NCBI GenBank assembly: GCA_011939005.1 | Contig: GCA_011939005.1_4858.1 | DNA: 64,000 nt | Reading direction: 5' to 3' (one strand) | Source of the DNA: a phage | Shown: in pieces, positions 2,262 through 58,705 of the stretch | How positions within the stretch are numbered: position 1 is the first letter of the stretch | Layout: each line of letters begins with the position of its first letter | The notes under the pieces: model-generated | The model's input: the letters and a program-made list of their open reading frames with translations, nothing else | What the model was told of the DNA's origin: nothing | The model's database searches: none | Translations under genes and position numbers: made by a program

Positions 2262-3395
2262 TTACGTTTTGACTGACTGTGAAGGTAATCTGGCATCGTA
2301 CATTAAAAAGATTTCCAGCAGGTTCATACCCGTCGCGTAAAAGATTTGGTCTGTGATGACACTCACTAACGCATCTGGGTCAATCGCATCTACTGCGAAA
2401 TCGCTGTCGAACTGCCAGAACTCGACGTCATCCCCCTTTTCAAACGTCGCGGCATACAATCCAGGTTTCACACCACGCCGGAACGAAAAGAGTTTTGCGT
2501 CAGACTCAGTGTCCTTACCATAAATTTCCCCGTCGGTCAGTGTGATCGCTGCGCGTTTACACCGAGTTACCGTAAGGAGCGCACGGTTTGCAGATGCTTG
2601 CGATTTAAACGGATAGGGGCCATCGTATGTCGGGACATTCTGGTCGCCTAAGGCATCAAGTGCCTTACTCCGATAGACTACCGGAGACTTAAAATTACAC
2701 AGTCGATTCCCTTCGGTAAACATTGTGTATTCGACCTTAACGTCGGTACCGACGAGGTCAGCAGGGGACACTTTGTAGTGTGCTAACTGTCCCTGCACGC
2801 GGCGAGAGAGCATCGATGCCAGGAACGTGTGGTTGCCCTGTGTACGCAAGACATACCCAAACTCTGTGCAGTCGACGATACGAGCGTCCATACGCCGTAC
2901 AGGCTCCAGCCGGTAAGTCACATCATTCGCTTCGATAAGAAACTGACTGATGCTAACATCGCGAGATCGATGTTTGATTGCTTCAAACACTTCACCCGCT
3001 TCCAGAATAGCTGGTTCAATTACATTGACCTGGAATGGGAGGGGTTTCGTCGGCCGTTGACCCATTGTTGTCACTGTCATCGAACGTAGCCACGGGTCGT
3101 CCTCGCTAGGGTCATTGGAGAGCCAATGCGTTAACCAGCGAGAAAGATTCTGGGGAATCGTTGCGGTTGAATATAAAATCACGGTACCCATTATGCCTGC
3201 ATCGGCCAGCAAGCGCGCGAGTACCGTGTTCATCGAATCGTATTTGCCATTTCGAAGAATAGGTAATCCCCCGACCTGGACCATTTCGCAGATGACGCCG
3301 TGCGGCAGCACCCACATCTTCACTTGTTGGGCAGAATGTATCTGCCCCGTGCGTAGCTTTTCTTGCCACGCGTGCTTACGTTCATAGTTCATCAT
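2262..3395 (-). CDS. Hypothetical protein, 377 aa
   Basis: Long ORF, SD aggag upstream, followed by terminator at 1709-1734 after next gene. Confidence 0.6.
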   Translation of the reverse strand: MMNYERKHAWQEKLRTGQIHSAQQVKMWVLPHGVICEMVQVGGLPILRNGKYDSMNTVLARLLADAGIMGTVILYSTATIPQNLSRWLTHWLSNDPSEDDPWLRSMTVTTMGQRPTKPLPFQVNVIEPAILEAGEVFEAIKHRSRDVSISQFLIEANDVTYRLEPVRRMDARIVDCTEFGYVLRTQGNHTFLASMLSRRVQGQLAHYKVSPADLVGTDVKVEYTMFTEGNRLCNFKSPVVYRSKALDALGDQNVPTYDGPYPFKSQASANRALLTVTRCKRAAITLTDGEIYGKDTESDAKLFSFRRGVKPGLYAATFEKGDDVEFWQFDSDFAVDAIDPDALVSVITDQIFYATGMNLLEIFLMYDARLPSQSVKT

Positions 3396-3467
3396 TGGGT
3401 AAAATCTCCTTCAGGTATACTCTCAGTATGATAACATATATCCGTAAATTTTTAGAGGTTTAGCGCC

Positions 3468-4844
3468 ATGTCTGAATTGGTTTATGATTTCAGTGCCGGT
3501 TGTTATCGTGATACCGGAGTGAAGGTTGCCGTCGAATCATTCGGACGTGACCCATTCTTCGACGATGACACGTATTCTACGGGCTTGTATTACGACTACG
3601 GTTTTGGCGGCTACGTTCCGATGGGACTGGTGGTTGCTGCAGAAGCCATGAAGAATGACCGATTACGTAAAGTGTTTGACGAATGTTTTAAACATGTCGT
3701 TATCGATCGTCGTTTTGCAAAGCAAATTCAACTTCACGTGGATAACATTCTTAAACGTGAAGGCAATGTGGAGTGGCTAGGGTCTAATCTATTAGGCGTC
3801 CACACCATTCGTTTCTACGATTCTGACCGTAACCGCTTTTTTGAAGATGTCTTGAAAGTGGATGAAGATTATCTGTTCGAGATGATTAAAGAATCGGGTA
3901 CGATTAACACCGACTGGGCAGTGGCGGGTGATCCGTATAACCTCTCTACGGTGTATACTCTACATCGAATGATGTCGAAATTCGCCGATCGTGAAATCCA
4001 CGCCGCGGCGGTATCGTTAGTAACGCTTCTGCAATTCAAATTCTACTCCAGTATATATTATCACTTCTTCCCCAAGCCGGTCGACATGGCCGCTGCCGAC
4101 GCCGCATACTCGATGTTGTCGTTAAAGTTCGATATCCGTCGTTTAGGCAACTGGGGTCTGCACATGCAGGAGCGTTCAGAATACTTCTGTTCTCCGGAGT
4201 ACCCAAACTACGACGCGGTTAAACGTTTTGATACGCCAGACCTGGTATTGCGTTTTATCACCGACCTGAACACCCGTACCAAACAAACTGTGAAGGACTA
4301 TTACGCGGTATTGGACAAAGTGCGTCGTGATAACAGTCGTGTAATTACGCAGTCAACCCGAATTGAGTTAGACGGTGAATCGATTATCCGTGACAAAGTG
4401 GGTGCGCTGGATATCGCTAAGCAGAATTTGTTCGATGCGTCTTACGACATCAACAATCTCTACAAAGAGCAATTGGCAAAAGTGGTATTGGAGCTAGTAC
4501 CCAAAGCATCTCCCGCGGCACTGAAAACTTTGCTGGCGTATATTGCAAGTCTACCGCTTGGCAAAAAGCGCGATGAGATTAACGCTATCATGGAGGACAC
4601 GCTATCGCACGCGTTCGACGAAATTGTTACCTCTCGTCTGAACTTTAACGATGCGAGCACGGTTCTACTGCGTATGCGTTCGTTGTACCAGGCTTCGAAG
4701 TCCCCTAACCCATACGTGTTATCGTTGCGTGAACGGATTGAGAAACTGGCCGCACGGGAAACACACATCCGCCATGAAGCCGCGTTGGCCGCTTTGCGTA
4801 ATGCGTTACTGTTGTACTTCTTGATCCGCTCTTTGCAGAAATAA
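3468..4844 (+). CDS. Hypothetical protein, 458 aa
   Basis: Long ORF with SD gagg upstream and strong terminator downstream. Confidence 0.7.
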   Translation: MSELVYDFSAGCYRDTGVKVAVESFGRDPFFDDDTYSTGLYYDYGFGGYVPMGLVVAAEAMKNDRLRKVFDECFKHVVIDRRFAKQIQLHVDNILKREGNVEWLGSNLLGVHTIRFYDSDRNRFFEDVLKVDEDYLFEMIKESGTINTDWAVAGDPYNLSTVYTLHRMMSKFADREIHAAAVSLVTLLQFKFYSSIYYHFFPKPVDMAAADAAYSMLSLKFDIRRLGNWGLHMQERSEYFCSPEYPNYDAVKRFDTPDLVLRFITDLNTRTKQTVKDYYAVLDKVRRDNSRVITQSTRIELDGESIIRDKVGALDIAKQNLFDASYDINNLYKEQLAKVVLELVPKASPAALKTLLAYIASLPLGKKRDEINAIMEDTLSHAFDEIVTSRLNFNDASTVLLRMRSLYQASKSPNPYVLSLRERIEKLAARETHIRHEAALAALRNALLLYFLIRSLQK

Positions 4845-17560: not shown

Positions 17561-17594
17561 GTAAATATTCCTTACGGTAATGGTCGATTAACTA

Positions 17595-18437: not shown

Positions 18438-18530
18438 TGTAAATACTCCTTCTGGGTAATAGTCGATTAAAGCGTTAACGTGTAACGCTCACCTAAGTAA
18501 TATATATCTCAGTTCTTTTTGAATGCAATT

Positions 18531-23589: not shown

Positions 23590-26500
23590 TTAGTTGATTT
23601 TAGCCGGCAAGGCTGGGACGTCTTCACCATCTAAGATGCGTCCGATATTCTCCCCACCACGATACCCGACAGCGTTGGTGGTTCCGATGCGCATGATAGA
23701 ACCTACGATACGTGCGTCGACGGAATCACGACCAAAGATAATGTCGAGTTCCTGCCCGTCTTCCGTTTTGTTGGTTCCATACATCACTTCCTGAACCGTC
23801 GTTTTCAGCTGGTTAGCAATAACCATCTTATCCGCTGCTGCCATCTCTACCCGGTGTGTGATGTAGAATCGGACACACAGGCTATTGTACGCTAACGGCA
23901 CCCCCTCAACACGAAAATCACCGTTGACTCGACCGTCCTTCGGCTCGTCACGTTTGAGAGCCAGCGCAGTCTTCCGACGTATACGGTCGTATTTACGAAC
24001 CATCTCCGCCAAAGACGGGGTCATATCTTCCACCTCGCCGTGGTAAACCACTTCGATTTTGTCGATAAACCCACGAACACCAGAGCGTGGTGCAAAGGAG
24101 CTTAACTCACGCAGCGTTTCCGCTGCTTCTTTACTGAACCCGCTCATATCGCCGGTCAGGTTGTCGGTGAAGGTGCATAGAATTGAATCCACGTCTACGT
24201 GGTCCCCTTCTTTTACCATCTCCAACAGGTTCTGGGTAAACGTCATTGTGACTTCTTTGAGTTTGGTAACATCGGCTTCAGCCTTAGCAGCGAACCGCTC
24301 ACTAATGGCGTTGGAGTCCTCAATTACTTCTTCCCCTTCAATCAAAGCGACAGTTGCCAGTATCCCGTTTTTAAAACTGACCTGCGTTGGATCGTAGATG
24401 TCTGGTTCAAAGTGTTGTTCGTTGTACGTGATAACGGCACCGGCAGGGAGTTTATCTCCGCGCTTCCATTTCGTTACCAGGGTGTGTGGGTAGTAAGTCC
24501 CTTCGTGTGGACCGAACCAACGGCCCAGTGGGAAAGCTTCTTCCTCTCCGTCGTCGTATTTGATTTTAACGTGGTCGTTAAGAACCTCCACAATCTTGCC
24601 TGGTTTATCGATTACGCGTGCGTGCTTCACAGAAGTACGGTGTGCCACGAACTTTTCTTGCTCGGTACGATACGGTGTGGTGGTTGCGCCAACACAACTG
24701 GTCGCAGAACCGAATTGAATCCCAACGAAGTTCTGACGCTTAGCATCGTCCATCAGGGTATCCGGCACCAAGCCATCAATAAATGACAGTGCCTCACCTG
24801 GCTTCAGTTTATCGAGGTCCTTTTTAAAGGTCGTGCCGTCCACGGTGTCGTAACGCGGATTGTTTGTTGCAAAGGCGGTGATACCTACGTCGCCGTTATC
24901 GACCGTGTTACCGGAGATAATCCCCAGGTCGCTCGGTTGGAATTCACGGGTACTGTATACCATGGTTTTGCGGTTACGACCACCTGTACCGCCCATGGTA
25001 ACGACATCTTTTTCTTTGATGTTCTGTACCGGGTTTGCGCCAGGAGCCAGCAGAACAGACGGGTCGGAGTTAATTGCACCCCACACCATGTCCTGCGTCA
25101 ACTCAAACTTACGATTTGAGTTAGGCGCGTTGTTGTAGTTACGCATCGCCCGCACCATCGCGGTGTAGATGTGATACGAAATACGTTGGTTCCCGATGAA
25201 CATCATTTCGTCACCGTTAATTTCCGGTAACGTGTGGTCCGTCTGCAGCAGTTCGTTAGAACGCTCCAGTAAGCCGATAAAGGTTTCCGGCTCGCCCATT
25301 TTCCTGAGGATACGCGCGTGCATGTCATCAACAAATGCGGTCCGCATCAGTTTCAGCTCTTTGATGTAGCGTGGTGTTAGCCCATCTGCATCGCGTAACA
25401 GGTTCAGATAAATGTCTTCCCGGTCAACTTCCGACTCGGTATACGTGGTAAAGTGTTTGATGTAACGGTCTAAGCCGTTGACAATCATCCTCTGTTGATC
25501 GTTCTCGCAGACAATTGCAATTTTCGCATCCTGGAGACGAATAATGGAGTCGAACTGACCTTTATCGATACGTTGTCCGACAGAGAGAACCTCGTAACTG
25601 ATACCAAAGTGTTTCAACATCCCGGTTAACCCGAGATAGTACGAAAACACAAAGCCCAGCGAGATTGATTTGCCCATCAGTGACAGTTCGGTCATTTCTC
25701 GTGGAGCCTTAGAGGTGTCCACGCCAAAGACCTCGGCGAGTGTACCCAGTGGTTCGGTCTTATCCTTATCCACTCGATAAAGCTGGGAGTTTTTATCCAT
25801 ACCGACGATGACATGACTCCGCGGTTTCTTCGCCACAGGTACCAGCTCGACACGGTCCGCGTCTGCCAGTTGCCCTTCGTTAAAGAATGCCGCTTTCTGT
25901 TTAATGTCAAAGTTCCATTGGTACCCAATTGCGTTGAACGCTGCTACACGACGTGCCACCTCGGTGTACTGACGCGGCAGTTTAGACAGCGGATCGAACA
26001 CATTCGCCAGTTTTGCATCAGTGATTTCGGTGTTCTTTGGATCGACCGCGCGAGTAATAATCGCATTAGTGAGCCAACGTCCGTAATCATTGACGACTTT
26101 ATCACTGCGACGGACAAAGTTCTTCCCGTAGGCAGTGGTTAACGCTACAGTATCGTGGGACACTTTACGGATAGGAAGATCAACGCGCTGACGACGCATT
26201 GTATATTCTACACCATTCGCAACCCAAGTACCGTCTTCGGTTAATGCAGGAATTGAGAAACGTACCGTGGTTGGTTCTCCGCCAATCGGCTGAATACGCA
26301 ACGTGTGGTGTTCGATATTCCCGGTAACGGAAATCTCTTTCTCGACAGTGTGATTGTGAATCGCTAAACCAAGACGTTGGGATGACGCTACTGCCCCCAG
26401 AATATCTTTCGGGAAGATTTCCTGGTTGTACTGACGAATGATTTGGTCGGTGGTATTTTCCGCCCAGGCTTCATCCGTAACTAAGCGTTCAATCTTCTTA

Positions 26501-50117: not shown

Positions 50118-50193
50118 AGGTGTTATCCTATTATGAGATGTTGTCTCGGATAGATAATATCTGTCTGAGTTCTTTTTGAGATGAGGTTATCCC

Positions 50194-53831: not shown

Positions 53832-54131
53832 TTAGCGTTTTTTCAGTGGGAGTAACAGACGACGTTTATGCCAAACTTCGAAATGCATTTCTGCCCACTC
53901 GGTGACTTGACTGTCATCTTTAGGGTTGATATTAGAAATGCCCTTGAAGCGGTTACGGTTACGTTCGTCGATTTCGATTTCCAGAACGCGCTGACCATCA
54001 GCACGAGTGGTCACGTTCAGGATTTTACCAACCACGATCGGACTACCATCGGTATTCTTCTTCGTCGGGGTGGTGTAAATCTCAGGTTCGATACGAGAGG
54101 TTAAAGCGCGAGTCAGTAATTTGATTCTCAT
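53832..54131 (-). CDS. Hypothetical protein, 99 aa
   Basis: ORF. Confidence 0.45.
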   Translation of the reverse strand: MRIKLLTRALTSRIEPEIYTTPTKKNTDGSPIVVGKILNVTTRADGQRVLEIEIDERNRNRFKGISNINPKDDSQVTEWAEMHFEVWHKRRLLLPLKKR

Positions 54132-54229
54132 CAGGTGTTACCTTTTTGCAGTTCTCGTACATAAGGTTTGGGTGATACGTAAAAGACTTACTATGTAGCC
54201 CAATCCCTTATATATTCGAGGTTGATAGA

Positions 54230-54985
54230 ATGAATGTTAATCCACTTGCAGCGTTGTCGGGCTTTGTTGCCAAAGCATCCACGATTCTGCCTAAAGCCTT
54301 TAGCGGCTCTCAACAGGAACTCGCGCTGACCACCTATGACGACATGTCTGATGTGTCCAAGTGGATGCAGCAAGAGAAGTTTTTAAACTTTACCGGAATG
54401 CTTGTACCCGTACCTCCGGGCTTCAACACGTATGTGATGGACCACATAGAACGGTTGGAATCTGTATGGGCTGTGCTCCAGAAGATTCAGGAAGGGGTTT
54501 TAACACCCATCGACAAACGTTTCGGTGCGATGACCCACGACCTGGGCATGTTAACTCTGCCGATTGGGTTTAAGTTCAAAGACCTGAACTACCCACTGAA
54601 AAACATTAACCCGAAAGACCTGGTTGAGAAACTGGCGAAGTCGTACACCAACAATGTGATCGACCAGCGTGCGATTGAAAAGACCTACCACAGTGCAGGT
54701 GAGATTGACGTTGCGTTTAATCGTGCCAAAGCGCTGAACCTGGAAGTGACTAAGAAACTTCAGAAAGGTATTGATCGTACAGTTGAAAGCATCAATGTCT
54801 CTGTAGACATTATCTCTAATTCACAAGTCCATCCTAATGTGGCGGCAGAGTTAGTGAAAATGGCTGACATGGGTGCTGACTGGGTTGAGCTGTTCGGACT
54901 GTTTATGAAACAGATTAATGAACTGACAGAATGCCTGAACGTAACCGGTGATCGCCTCAAGACCCTGAAAGCAAACAAAAAATAA
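54230..54985 (+). CDS. Hypothetical protein, 251 aa, monocistronic plus-strand gene
   Basis: SD gagg; own terminator directly downstream. Confidence 0.6.
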   Translation: MNVNPLAALSGFVAKASTILPKAFSGSQQELALTTYDDMSDVSKWMQQEKFLNFTGMLVPVPPGFNTYVMDHIERLESVWAVLQKIQEGVLTPIDKRFGAMTHDLGMLTLPIGFKFKDLNYPLKNINPKDLVEKLAKSYTNNVIDQRAIEKTYHSAGEIDVAFNRAKALNLEVTKKLQKGIDRTVESINVSVDIISNSQVHPNVAAELVKMADMGADWVELFGLFMKQINELTECLNVTGDRLKTLKANKK

Positions 54986-55039
54986 AAAGTAAGCAGTACC
55001 CACTCCCCTTACGGGAGTGGGTAGGCTTTATTTTATTTG
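54975..55039. terminator. Bidirectional intrinsic terminator between convergent genes (hairpin 54997-55023)
   Basis: 11-bp stem tacccactccc/gggagtgggta, T-rich run 55027-55037, A-rich run 54975-54988. Confidence 0.75.
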
Positions 55040-55956
55040 CATTTAGAACCGTTGACAAATGTCGGCGGTATCCATTTCAAAATCTTTGTCCGATTCCCGT
55101 CACGTGGACCGAGCCAGTAAGTACACCAGTGTGCACGACGCATATGCGCACATCTGCTACCTTGTGTTCTTTTCTCCGTATCAGTATCAAATTCTTCAAG
55201 ATACTCGCTTTGTGCTTTTACGGTGGAGAGGACAGTCGGTTTAGATTTTGGTTCAATGTGGTAATTGGCGATACGTTTCTTTCCAGTTAATTGTCTCAGT
55301 TTGACGGGTGTAGGGTTGTGCGGGATCAGTGAGAATGTAAACATGGTAGCGCCGACAATGCGTAACGTTTTCTCATTGGCCGGCGTACCAGTTTCCGCCA
55401 CACGCAAGGATACAAAGCCGTCACCCACGTCCACGATTTCAAAGGTTTCCCCCTCGATACGTTTTCCAAAAATCATCATTGTTAAACAATCTTTCCCTTT
55501 AAACATTCGCCGACCGAAAACGTAAGTCTTTTCTTGGATACCGATATCTTTAGCGCGATAGCACACTGAAAAGGAGACGGCCCAACCGGGAATCTTGTCT
55601 ATCCAGCTGCGTGGTATCTCAGTGAGAACGTCGCCAAGTAGAACTTGTTCAAAAATATTAAGATCAAATTCCATTTGGATACCCCCGTATCGCCAGCCGT
55701 AGGCAAGAGACAGGAAGTCTGCGGTGCATTCTTCGGCGAAGCAGTTCTTTAGGAACGCCTCAATCGGTATAAAGTGCTGGCCTATCTCGCCACAATGGGC
55801 TATTGCGTATTGCTCGATGATGGCGGGATCTCCACTTCTGGATTTCACACGTTCGTCGATTTTAGTAAGACCGTTTAAGAAATTACTCGGGGATTCGCGC
55901 ATACCGATTACATCTACATTTACCGATTCTGCCAAATCAAAAAGAAAGCTGTCCAT
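55033..55956 (-). CDS. Hypothetical protein, 307 aa, monocistronic (terminators on both sides)
   Basis: SD aaggag 7 nt upstream; C-terminal Cys/His cluster RCAHMRRAHWC. Confidence 0.6.
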   Translation of the reverse strand: MDSFLFDLAESVNVDVIGMRESPSNFLNGLTKIDERVKSRSGDPAIIEQYAIAHCGEIGQHFIPIEAFLKNCFAEECTADFLSLAYGWRYGGIQMEFDLNIFEQVLLGDVLTEIPRSWIDKIPGWAVSFSVCYRAKDIGIQEKTYVFGRRMFKGKDCLTMMIFGKRIEGETFEIVDVGDGFVSLRVAETGTPANEKTLRIVGATMFTFSLIPHNPTPVKLRQLTGKKRIANYHIEPKSKPTVLSTVKAQSEYLEEFDTDTEKRTQGSRCAHMRRAHWCTYWLGPRDGNRTKILKWIPPTFVNGSKCK

Positions 55957-55983
55957 TTAATACTCCTTTAGATTAATGGTCGA

Positions 55984-56019
55984 TTAAAATAAAACTACGG
56001 ACACCCCGAAGAGTGTCCG
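55984..56019 (-). terminator. Intrinsic terminator (hairpin 55998-56019, UUCG loop on minus RNA)
   Basis: 7-bp stem cggacac/gtgtccg directly after stop at 56025, A-rich plus run upstream. Confidence 0.6.
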
Positions 56020-56024
56020 TTTAA

Positions 56025-56567
56025 CTAGAAATTGCCAATAGTGATGGGCTGCGTTGGCTCGACCACAATCAGTATTTCTTTCAGACGTGAAACGATATGC
56101 TCCCAGATCTGTGCTTCGAGGTGACGTAGCATAGTGGTGAACTCCTCCATATACATCTTTTTATACTCGTCGCGGTTGAGATGTTCCCACGCTTCTTTCA
56201 ATGGGCCTGCTTCCGGTCCAGACATCTTAATCATCATTTCGATGTCCTTCATTTCATCAAACGCTTTACCGACCTTATCAATAACCTCATCGGTCTTGAG
56301 TTCGAGTGAGAAGCGACCCATCTTAGACTGCAGGAAGCCGTCTTCAATGTCTTCGTCGTTGTATTCGAAACACGCAATACGTTGCGCGAGTTGATGAACT
56401 TCATTTACCGCGATATTGACGTACGCCGCAGAGATAAGTCCAGCGAGGTGTTGACGATCGATATTCTTCGGTATCAGATAGTCTTCACACTTACGCTTAA
56501 ACTCGAACAACGCCGCTGGAAATATTTCACGAAATTCGTCATCGAGTAAATCAATGAATATTTTCAT
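56025..56567 (-). CDS. Hypothetical protein, 180 aa (tandem paralog of next gene)
   Basis: ORF; shares N-terminal M-x-I-x-IDxx and internal RF-x-L...TD...DKVG segment with 56564-57103. Confidence 0.55.
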   Translation of the reverse strand: MKIFIDLLDDEFREIFPAALFEFKRKCEDYLIPKNIDRQHLAGLISAAYVNIAVNEVHQLAQRIACFEYNDEDIEDGFLQSKMGRFSLELKTDEVIDKVGKAFDEMKDIEMMIKMSGPEAGPLKEAWEHLNRDEYKKMYMEEFTTMLRHLEAQIWEHIVSRLKEILIVVEPTQPITIGNF

Positions 56568-57103
56568 TCAACAGGTTTCCCATATTTCTCGCCGAGATAC
56601 AGCAGTTCGCGACGACAGATAGCCAGCACCTTCATCTCCGCCTCACGATACAGCTTGGTGATTTTGTCAATGATTGGCTGGTCAACGATATCGGACCATG
56701 TTACCGTATCCGTAACGTTCGACGTTTGCCCGTTAATGACCACAGCAACATATGTCTCGCCCAGGTTCTCTTGATGTAACCCCGCCAGAGATTCACCAAC
56801 CTTATCAAAGGCTTCACTCAATAAGTCGGTGATTTGGTCCGTCCCTTCTACCAGTTCAAAACGATGGGGATAGTTCAGAATGTTACGCAGCCGCGTGAAC
56901 ATACGCTCAATAAGCTGATTTACCATATCCCCAGTGTCACAGATAGTCACATCTACACCCGAACCTATTTCGTCAGACAAACGATTTTCGTGGACGGCCA
57001 ACGCATCGTGAAGTTCAAATTCCACGTCACGTTTTAATCCTAACAGAATTTCATCTAGCTGACGTCTCGACTCCGACAGAGCGAAGTCAATTACGATTTG
57101 CAT
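56564..57103 (-). CDS. Hypothetical protein, 179 aa (tandem paralog)
   Basis: ORF; see previous. Confidence 0.55.
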   Translation of the reverse strand: MQIVIDFALSESRRQLDEILLGLKRDVEFELHDALAVHENRLSDEIGSGVDVTICDTGDMVNQLIERMFTRLRNILNYPHRFELVEGTDQITDLLSEAFDKVGESLAGLHQENLGETYVAVVINGQTSNVTDTVTWSDIVDQPIIDKITKLYREAEMKVLAICRRELLYLGEKYGKPVE

Positions 57104-57113
57104 CTAATGCTCC

Positions 57114-57521
57114 TTAAAAGTTACTTAACTCGGGCTGCGTATACCAGTATCTGCACGCTACGAGATCCACAACGTTATATTTCAGTTGTCCACCGTGCTG
57201 TGACGTGTCTGCCAATTCATGCGCAAGCTTGTACGCCAAGTCTTCACGGTTGTCGAGGATAAGCAACACAACACGCTGCACCTCATTAAAGATATCCGGT
57301 TCACGTAAACAACTGTAGCGCTCGCTAAGATGCTTAATAACGCCTTTATAAACATCTTCTGGTACAGCAGTGCCATTTTCTGCTACGTGGAATGAAACAA
57401 GCACGATTTTAATTAAAATCTCGACAACCATGGAGTATATCATTCCACGGTTGCCGTTAATTTCCACATGCTTTAGATACTCTTGCAAGTCCATCAATGA
57501 CTCGCTATACACCTTTAACAT
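57114..57521 (-). CDS. Hypothetical protein (about 136 aa; start at ATG 57521)
   Basis: SD agaggtgg before ATG 57521, 11 nt after upstream stop. Confidence 0.45.
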   Translation of the reverse strand: MLKVYSESLMDLQEYLKHVEINGNRGMIYSMVVEILIKIVLVSFHVAENGTAVPEDVYKGVIKHLSERYSCLREPDIFNEVQRVVLLILDNREDLAYKLAHELADTSQHGGQLKYNVVDLVACRYWYTQPELSNF

Positions 57522-57532
57522 AGCGACCACCT

Positions 57533-57904
57533 CTAGTTGGTTGCCGGCCACACCCCTGGCGATGGGATTGCATCGTATCCACGCCATTTCTTAATGGCAA
57601 CAAGGCTAGTGCCTGGGGAGCCGTCTAAATCGAAACCGACGGTTGCAACCACATCAACTTCGGTTTCTAAGTTAGAGTGGCCGATCGGAGAGAGGTGGGA
57701 GAAGCTGACGACTTTACCGCCCTGGATGGCGGTATCTCGAACTATACGAGCCATCTGTCTTATTTCTTGAGAAACTGGGCCGCGTAGGGTGGTTACCCGC
57801 GACGATAACGTCAACCAGTTTTCGCTCTCGGGTGCGACTATGTACAGAATAGTCCCTTCTTTAAAGTATTGTTTAACCAGTGTTTCAAATTCGTCTTGCG
57901 TCAT
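57533..57904 (-). CDS. Hypothetical protein, 123 aa
   Basis: ORF. Confidence 0.45.
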   Translation of the reverse strand: MTQDEFETLVKQYFKEGTILYIVAPESENWLTLSSRVTTLRGPVSQEIRQMARIVRDTAIQGGKVVSFSHLSPIGHSNLETEVDVVATVGFDLDGSPGTSLVAIKKWRGYDAIPSPGVWPATN

Positions 57905-57917
57905 GTTAAATACTCCT

Positions 57918-58652
57918 TCAGTAGTTTAGTTTCTCAGCGACTTCTTTACGGATGCGACACATCACCACCATCGCACCATTCGGAATTTGGCTCACGCAGT
58001 TATCCGTGTAAAACTTACCTTCACAGAGATAAAAGTCCAGACACATGGCATCGGTCAGTTCGTGCCACAGTGTGCCGAAACCATACTGCCAAGGGCCGGA
58101 ATGAACGACATCGTAATCGCCATCAGTTATGCCAAATGCGGCAGTAGCGGAAGACCACAGTGTTGAGGAGGTGGTATAAGTGTCATACCAGTAACCGAGC
58201 AGTCGATGGTTACGACGTATCTCAGCTAACCGCTCGTACATTGGGATGAATACGTCCTCCACTTGCGTGACAAAATCAGCCAGCATCAACTTTTCCGTGA
58301 ACCACTCGATCCACGCAAAGATTTGTTCTTCAACGTCTTGTTGGCTTAACCCCGTGGCAGTAATGCCTTCTTCGTAGGTGTAACCTTCGTAGACGTCAAC
58401 AACATTAATCTCTACATGCTCTAGCGTGAACAACCGTTCGGTGTTGATGCAGTCGTACATCTCTTGTAACCACGCAGTGAAGACTTCTATACAGACGTTG
58501 ATGGCTGTATACTTGAATTCATCGCGCAGAGGATACCACTGTGGGTTATCCTTTAGTTCGTTCTTCGCGAACGCGGGCCAATGCTTTTCGAACAACGCTT
58601 CAAAGAACTGGGGCGTGAGGTTTAAAAGCACCGGCACTTCGACTTTAAGCAT
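57918..58652 (-). CDS. Hypothetical protein, 244 aa
   Basis: ORF. Confidence 0.55.
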   Translation of the reverse strand: MLKVEVPVLLNLTPQFFEALFEKHWPAFAKNELKDNPQWYPLRDEFKYTAINVCIEVFTAWLQEMYDCINTERLFTLEHVEINVVDVYEGYTYEEGITATGLSQQDVEEQIFAWIEWFTEKLMLADFVTQVEDVFIPMYERLAEIRRNHRLLGYWYDTYTTSSTLWSSATAAFGITDGDYDVVHSGPWQYGFGTLWHELTDAMCLDFYLCEGKFYTDNCVSQIPNGAMVVMCRIRKEVAEKLNY

Positions 58653-58705
58653 CGTGAATAAATTCTCCTTAAGGTTACGTCCCTGTAGATAATATCTATC
58701 TCAGA

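Follow-up and report, generated by a model that had tools for sequence, protein, structure and literature searches.

A core head gene and an optional AcrVA2/FinQ-family gene converge on one bidirectional terminator in an SPN3US-like giant phage

Introduction

AcrVA2 of Moraxella bovoculi (PDB 7CI1/7CI2; PF26125) binds the N-terminal peptide of Cas12a and causes translation-dependent loss of Cas12a mRNA; its residues H286, R288 and H291 are needed for mRNA down-regulation, not for binding, and their substitution abolishes activity (bioRxiv 10.1101/2022.11.29.518452). Mutation of W79 or D89 causes partial loss of function. Plasmids and megaphages carry homologs of AcrVA2, FinQ included, for the most part where the host lacks Cas12a, and translation-dependent mRNA destruction upon nascent-peptide binding has been demonstrated for AcrVA2 only. 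FinQ, encoded by IncI-type plasmids, itself works by reducing the mRNA of particular genes on another element. Here, we analyze two convergent genes in a 64,000-nucleotide (nt) stretch of phage DNA (NCBI GenBank assembly GCA_011939005.1, contig GCA_011939005.1_4858.1; hereafter the window), and report that one, encoding a 307-amino acid (aa) protein, is an optional gene with an AcrVA2/FinQ-family product, and that the other, encoding a 251-aa protein, is a core gene for the head protein gp214.

SPN3US gp214 is a 28.1-kDa essential protein that is found in virions, is head-associated, and is the homolog of phiKZ ORF153 (PMC5105663, PMC5694885). The phiKZ gene, PHIKZ153, has been mapped by experiment as a transcription unit of one gene (TU118) with its own transcription start and termination sites, and was proposed to have been "acquired individually" (PMC10914365). 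In the same phage, the phage-encoded polymerases use hairpin-plus-TTAT terminators that have been mapped experimentally, bidirectional ones between convergent genes included (PMC10914365), and late promoters have a T(-3)ATG(+1) core (PMC7598289). A study of the Goslar virion places gp192 in a five-fold "vertex binding complex" on the inner capsid face.

The original prediction for this locus, made from the window's sequence, had treated the two genes as one moron-like acquired accessory pair insulated by terminators. In phage morons and the T4-like PeSL-type regulatory cassettes, a stem-loop together with a conserved regulatory leader flanks an accessory open reading frame (ORF). As set out below, this reading suits the 307-aa gene, which is terminator-bracketed, variable and of a mobile-element family, and fails for the 251-aa gene, which is an essential core gene.

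Results

The phage from which the window derives is a Seoulvirus, one of the nucleus-forming giant phages that resemble SPN3US: region 54100-56100 is 96-99% identical to Seoulvirus genomes, which belong to giant Salmonella and E. coli phages of the SPN3US kind, and the gene order of the window agrees with the annotated SPN3US and JN03 regions. The convergent ORFs are present at their predicted positions (Table 1). Each had been credited with a strong ribosome-binding site, which is true of the 307-aa gene (AAGGAG, 55963-55968, 6 nt ahead of the ATG); that of the 251-aa gene is moderate (GAGG, 54218-54221, 8 nt ahead of the ATG). The two genes have different histories, are unrelated in origin and do not form a joint cassette.

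Table 1. Coordinates of features at the gp214 locus of the window
Feature	Position	Strand	Remarks
Divergent intergenic region	54132..54229		98 nt; separates the gp215-like gene (-) from the gp214-like gene (+)
251-aa ORF	54230-54985	+	SPN3US gp214 ortholog
Bidirectional intrinsic terminator	54997..55023		Common to both convergent genes; 11-bp stem, T-run on each strand
307-aa ORF	55033-55956	-	AcrVA2-like (PF26125) / FinQ-family protein
Variable segment	55039..56022		307-aa ORF, leader and upstream hairpin; in window, JN03, Lh1B, EC001
Conserved C-terminal effector motif	55054..55155	-	Residues 268-301; R-x-A-H271-M-R273-R-A-H276-W...W-x-G-P-R...W-I-P-P-T-F-V
Leader of 307-aa gene	55957..55996	-	Upstream terminator T-tract, TTAATCGACCATTA (55974-55987), ATCTA, AAGGAG (55963-55968), TATTAA, ATG
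Intrinsic terminator	55997..56020	-	Closes upstream operon (58652 to 56025); 10-bp stem; inside inserted segment
AT-rich early-promoter-like motif	58687..58700	-	GATAGATATTATCT; heads minus-strand operon ending at 56020-55997 hairpin

On sequence similarity, the 307-aa protein is an additional member of the known AcrVA2/FinQ family. Its close homologs in a database search fall into eight clusters only, all with PF26125 (AcrVA2-like); this family is precomputed for one protein that is 99% identical to ours and shares its 90% cluster (P0001), and for seven other homologs. A local hmmscan against Pfam matched neither the 307-aa protein nor even a homolog from that search (P0003) and is uninformative, the local copy apparently lacking PF26125; an NCBIfam scan gave no match, and PHROGs returned families of unknown function only. 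Searched by sequence against the PDB, the protein has a sole match, to the C-terminus of AcrVA2 (E 0.004 with the single sequence, 1.1e-4 with a profile), and the family profile aligns with plasmid FinQ over 200 columns (hhalign probability 97.3%, E 1.9e-11). An exhaustive profile search yields 1772 family representatives; roughly 1,800 AcrVA2 orthologs have been reported (bioRxiv 10.1101/2022.11.29.518452). The protein shares the overall fold of the AcrVA2 crystal structure, which is its only strong structural match. It is similar in size to AcrVA2 (307 residues here, 323 there) and, like it, has a mobile or viral carrier. Unlike AcrVA2, it is the product of a jumbo phage that is strictly lytic, forms a nucleus and infects enterobacteria, a group not known to have Cas12a, and it has no companion acrVA1 or aca gene. 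With FinQ it has in common the motif H-x-R-R-x-H-W...W-x-P-P; FinQ differs in being plasmid-borne, in its annotated form of 260 aa without the N-terminal ~95 residues, and in its target, the F tra operon, which is irrelevant to a phage.

The likeness includes the residues on which AcrVA2 depends. H271, R273 and H276 align with AcrVA2 H286, R288 and H291 and are invariant in nine close and 12 distant members; the pattern H.R..HW recurs in 139 of 154 family representatives. Toward the N-terminus, G-W88-R-Y...F-D98 aligns with G-T-W-R-Y...F-D of AcrVA2-type representatives at an equal 10-residue spacing, and W88 and D98 would correspond to AcrVA2 W79 and D89, with numbering carried across through intermediate representatives. 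All five AcrVA2 residues whose mutation weakens or abolishes activity are in this way matched. Conservation is uneven along the chain: between alleles, identity is highest, at 51-58%, over the last 45 residues and lowest, at 9-33%, in the N-terminal and central parts. This fits what is expected of a constant effector joined to a variable recognition part. The C-terminal string RCAHMRRAHWC, which the original prediction had singled out as a Cys/His cluster, is indeed present; a zinc or nuclease site was considered there and rejected, as in every homolog C267 is replaced by K and C278 by R or Q, with the H, R, H and W conserved. The string is the H-x-R-x-x-H-W motif of the AcrVA2 family, not a metal site.

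Comparison with related genomes shows that the 307-aa gene occupies a slot that can be filled, swapped or empty. Full-length matches to region 54100-56100 come from JN03, Lh1B and EC001 only; in most other matching records the 2001-base query span corresponds to ~1024 bases of genome. Of 40 matching phage records, three have the 307-aa gene and one more has an allele of 41% identity. Identity with SPN3US runs up to window position 55038 and resumes at ~56023, with ~984 nt between these points here and 10 nt (CGGACCGATT) there, so that the bidirectional hairpin and the 251-aa gene lie outside the variable segment, in conserved backbone. Part of the SPN3US filler (CGGAC...CG.TT) was considered as a hairpin remnant and set aside as too short to count as evidence for insertion or deletion. 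In SaP7, of the SPN3US species, the slot holds the ORF of the same size and 41% identity, and five flanking proteins are 96-100% identical. The slot also houses a homolog in two genera of Erwinia phages, in Asesino (Erskinevirus) and in ChrisDB (Machinavirus), and on a 194-kb metagenomic contig; Stratton and Machina, of the genera of Asesino and ChrisDB, have it empty with one hairpin.

Junctions in the filled genomes lie in conserved flanks. Between the window and SaP7, the upstream hairpin and leader are ~90% identical and divergence begins directly past the ATG. On the other side, the 180-aa gene, whose 3' end lies at window 56025-56055, carries clustered differences between filled and empty genomes in its last ~10 codons: the protein ends ...PTQPITIGNF in the window, JN03 and SaP7 and ...PMQPLSISKF in SPN3US, with 96% identity overall. 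The 3' end of this gene marks a recombination junction inside the gene, and the comparison points to allele exchange by homologous recombination via the conserved flanks. The 307-aa gene is an optional, exchangeable accessory gene whose recombination-prone slot is bounded by the gp214 terminator on one side and, on the other, by the point at which a predicted early operon ends. Its flanking stem-loop and leader and the breakpoints in these conserved flanks are what it shares with moron and PeSL cassettes; it differs from them in lacking a recognizable promoter and compositional deviation, and in belonging to a lytic phage with no lysogenic-conversion role.

Two further observations concern this slot and family. 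In the Cronobacter phage CR5, the slot contains an unannotated ORF of ~150 codons (~3300-3754, minus strand) that is unrelated to AcrVA2 and has no Pfam match; it has no stop before the terminator hairpin, and its frame continues antisense into the gp214 gene. This ORF suggests that the slot beside gp214 accepts differing cargo. A distant member of the family (P0008, 34% identity) is encoded on metagenomic contigs L016 and L017 between thymidylate-synthase-like genes, co-oriented with its neighbors, so that the AcrVA2-like subfamily is not confined to the gp214 slot. In the window, a search for another AcrVA2-like motif found none.

The 251-aa gene is, by contrast with its optional neighbor, a core and essential capsid/head gene that was not acquired. 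Its product is 99% identical to SPN3US ACQ60_gp052, which we equate with gp214 because its UvsX-like neighbor is SPN3US gp216 (PMC5694885). The lethal amber mutation am21 (SPN3US position 186856, c.682C>T, Q228am) maps exactly into this ORF, and Q228 is kept here. Length, neighbors, opposite-strand single-gene unit and downstream hairpin are all as in SPN3US. The family profile aligns with phiKZ gp153 (hhalign probability 94.5%, E 7.5e-8) and, in the PDB, with Goslar gp192 (11fg/36za; E 6e-10), and homology and synteny together place the protein in the chimallivirus head protein group gp214/gp153/gp192. Within this group, the prohead protease cleaves phiKZ gp153, which at 304 aa is the longer protein, but not SPN3US gp214 (PMC5694885). 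An AlphaFold model shows a helical bundle (predicted local distance difference test score, pLDDT, 81), for which the sole Foldseek indication was a weak one, to a chain of the phiKZ capsid; Pfam and NCBIfam scans found no match and PHROGs only families of unknown function. The two PDB entries label one and the same aligned sequence differently, as "Tail Tube gp217" (36za_5) and "PVC Protein gp192" (11fg_Z). Entry 36za has 55 chains, or 11 vertices x 5, which fits a vertex-binding protein, and the tail-tube label is probably a naming slip.

Variable presence among related phages, a check proposed in the original prediction, is found among otherwise near-identical genomes for the 307-aa gene only. 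Homologs of gp214 were detected by tblastn in 73 phage records, every related record found, with 79% identity in Asesino, 52% in ChrisDB and 47% in CR5. Conservation across phiKZ-like phages, typical codon usage and a core head function are the very properties by which acquisition of the 251-aa gene was to be refuted. Composition likewise gives no foreign signal in either gene: GC content is 0.458 for the 307-aa gene and 0.464 for the 251-aa gene against 0.489 for the window, inside the range of other genes, and codon-usage z-scores among 47 genes are -1.10 and +0.53, respectively. Tests of GC, GC at third codon positions (GC3), skew and codon usage found no foreign composition of the sort that marks a moron. 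As the 307-aa gene is resident-like in composition, any donors would have been similar phages.

Terminators delimit both genes, as had been predicted. The hairpins at 54997-55023 (plus strand) and 56020-55997 (minus strand; first placed at 55998-56019) are the top two terminator-like sites within 52-58 kb. Folded alone, the former reaches -25.4 kcal/mol and -26.1 on the opposite strand, and the latter -17.2 kcal/mol, with z-scores of -5.5, -5.0 and -5.4 and none of 200 shuffles folding equally well. Because it has a T-run on each strand, the hairpin at 54997-55023 is truly bidirectional. The T-run after each hairpin contains TTAT, resembling the experimentally mapped phiKZ terminators (PMC10914365). 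Seven related phages keep a hairpin with a T-run at this position, with stems of different sequence, and at the empty locus of SPN3US, Stratton and Machina the bidirectional hairpin stands alone. An Rfam scan of 53-57 kb gave no match. A sigma-70 promoter scan found fewer sites than in shuffled controls, a result irrelevant to a phage using its own RNA polymerases.

The isolated, opposite-strand position of gp214 is old. In phiKZ, too, the ortholog is a lone opposite-strand gene, between UvsX-like gp152 and the RNase H block, and phiKZ and the window have in common the strand inversion and the neighbors (UvsX-like gene, virion RNA polymerase subunit, RNase H). The opposite-strand placement of gp214/gp153 is kept from phiKZ to SPN3US; because it is conserved and the gene essential, we regard the layout as old rather than acquired. 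A TATG at 54192-54195 lies 35 nt ahead of the 251-aa ATG, and a TATG lies 40 nt ahead of phiKZ gp153; the former is a candidate late-promoter core, though a 4-mer carries no statistical weight. In the block between RNase H and the slot, the small genes at window 56025-58652 (homologs of SPN3US gp212 and gp213) are 17-30% identical between genera, compared with 52-88% for gp214 and UvsX, and phiKZ has a single small gene there. This block is fast-evolving and expandable.

Terminators lie on both sides of the 307-aa gene; where a moron would have its own promoter, the interval from the upstream hairpin to the ATG shows no early-type promoter motif, only the leader motif TTAATCGACCATTA, followed by ATCTAAAGGAGTATT. 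The motif is kept in SaP7 and degenerate in Asesino and ChrisDB. The gene has a resident-type leader in which a recognizable promoter is absent, and its predicted monocistronic nature is putative only. The leader belongs to a wider set: the 14-nt motif TTAATCGACYATTA has three exact copies in the window (17578-17591, 18457-18470 and 55974-55987, all on the minus strand), each 17-20 nt before an ATG, and in SPN3US it occurs at 23831, 65453, 94278, 114028, 167590, 223316 and 224195, usually with ATCTAAAGGAGTATT next. In five SPN3US leaders TTAATCGACYATTA stands 10-30 nt downstream of an AT-rich motif, often with a small hairpin between, and in one other it follows a hairpin. It looks like a 5'-leader element common to predicted early genes. 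Its use as a marker of the cassette was rejected, since its other two copies in the window stand ahead of genes that all Seoulvirus genomes have kept.

The AT-rich motif, GA(T/C)A(G/T)ATATTA(T/C)CT, has seven matches in the window against 1.6 expected, ahead of operon starts; minus-strand copies lie at 58687-58700, 50152-50165, 18495-18508 and 3429-3442. SPN3US has ~19 same-strand copies ahead of genes on its main coding strand, the orthologous site being at 184048, and for the window and SPN3US the motif can also be written (C/G)AGATA(G/T)ATATTA(T/C)C. It agrees with the type of early promoter that has been described in such phages (PMC7598289) and probably serves this phage group as its early promoter, used by the virion RNA polymerase. 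The GATAGATATTATCT site at 58687-58700 is a possible source of read-through into the 307-aa gene.

Discussion

We propose that two genes of separate origin meet at this locus: a core head gene, gp214, and an optional gene whose AcrVA2/FinQ-family product would destroy a target mRNA when triggered by a nascent peptide. Taken as a whole, we consider this account probable. In it, gp214 is a component of the complex lining the inside of the capsid vertices and an ancient single-gene unit on the strand opposite to its early/middle neighbors, most likely transcribed from its own late promoter to a stop at the bidirectional hairpin. Because the opposite-strand layout most likely permits this separate late promoter, the insulation of gp214 would reflect timing, not foreign origin. 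By analogy with AcrVA2, recognition in the 307-aa protein would fall to the variable N-terminal and central domains, which would bind a short peptide of one particular target protein as it leaves the ribosome; the invariant H271/R273/H276 motif at the C-terminus would then set off destruction of the target's mRNA. Divergent alleles in one slot would probably have different targets. The target is probably not Cas12a and more likely a host defense protein or a protein of a competing mobile element, made in the cytoplasm; for a phage that keeps its DNA inside a protein nucleus, it is plausible that the activity is cytoplasmic and coupled to the ribosome.

Several points weigh against this account. 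Identity to AcrVA2 is 16%, both overall and outside the C-terminus, with significant similarity only in the last ~55 residues; in the structure model of the 307-aa protein the catalytic motif (residues 264-272) has pLDDT <50; and Foldseek against the PDB did not recover AcrVA2. For jumbo-phage members of the family, activity would follow by analogy with AcrVA2 alone, and the AcrVA2/FinQ mechanism is poorly understood, AcrVA2's own mRNA destruction included. A strictly lytic phage has limited benefit from stopping new synthesis of a target, except where that target is induced or short-lived. No promoter, early-type included, is recognizable in the 36 nt that separate the upstream hairpin from the 307-aa ATG, and expression may depend on terminator read-through or an unrecognized promoter. 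Finally, the filled locus may represent an insertion, or the empty locus a deletion.

The best-surviving alternative, which we hold to be unlikely, is that the 307-aa protein is not an anti-defense factor and instead acts as a FinQ-like weapon against conjugative plasmids, prophages or co-infecting phages. FinQ of IncI-type plasmids reduces the amount of tra mRNA and inhibits transfer of the F plasmid, the 200-column alignment with FinQ is strong (probability 97.3%), and 119 of 142 plasmid matches of the family sit on conjugative plasmids. A lytic phage with a short cycle would, however, profit little from blocked conjugation; the mechanism is common to both readings, and the data do not separate them.

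A genuine anti-CRISPR role of the 307-aa protein, directed at Cas12a like that of AcrVA2, seems to us very improbable, even though family, fold and essential C-terminal residues are those of AcrVA2. Its recognition-side domains are just ~16% identical to those of AcrVA2, and most family members are found where Cas12a is absent. Type V-A systems (Cas12a) are not known in E. coli and Salmonella. Nucleus-forming phages are, moreover, already shielded from DNA-targeting CRISPR (PMC7162821).

We reject, as scarcely credible, the view of the 307-aa gene as a free-standing homing endonuclease or purely selfish insertion. Presence/absence polymorphism at a precise intergenic site and the substitutions clustered in the last ~10 codons of the 180-aa neighbor (...ITIGNF in filled genomes, ...LSISKF in SPN3US) might speak for it, but ordinary homologous recombination via the conserved leader and terminators explains the junction equally. 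Neither an endonuclease domain nor a motif (HNH, GIY-YIG, LAGLIDADG etc.) was found in the 307-aa protein; Pfam, NCBIfam and PHROGs give no nuclease family match, AcrVA2 is the only strong structural match, and divergent alleles sit in the same slot across four lineages. Least likely of all, to the point that we give it almost no weight, is a single horizontally acquired moron-like cassette of both genes, for which terminators around each gene, the position of the 251-aa gene as sole plus-strand gene in a minus-strand block and the phiKZ authors' similar "acquired individually" proposal for TU118 (PHIKZ153; PMC10914365) might speak, but against which stand an essential, structural gp214 present in all relatives with orientation and neighbors constant from phiKZ to SPN3US, an indel boundary at 55039 that excludes the 251-aa gene and its terminator, and typical composition.

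For the gp214/gp153 family, the inference that opposite strand plus terminators marks an acquired gene is wrong, and the same inference is in print for PHIKZ153; the layout instead represents ancient isolation of a late structural gene within an early/middle block. For the optional gene and its AcrVA2/FinQ family, the locus offers a near-isogenic natural comparison of an empty slot (SPN3US), an allele A (the window, JN03, Lh1B and EC001) and an allele B (SaP7). SPN3US, the allele-A phages and SaP7 are all cultivable on E. coli or Salmonella, making them useful for work on the AcrVA2/FinQ mechanism. Since AcrVA2 homologs had already been reported from megaphages whose hosts lack Cas12a, the advance in concept is a modest one.

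A more specific idea, which we offer tentatively and regard as doubtful in its full form, is that the gp214 slot is a dedicated exchange site in SPN3US-like phages, in which AcrVA2-like "specificity cartridges" would be swapped by recombination via the conserved terminator-plus-leader, each allele being tuned to destroy, in the cytoplasm and during translation, the mRNA of another host defense or rival-element protein. If true, such cartridges would constitute a counter-defense layer for phages that have shielded DNA but an exposed cytoplasmic phase, and would provide natural variants with which to map how the AcrVA2-like family reads nascent peptides.

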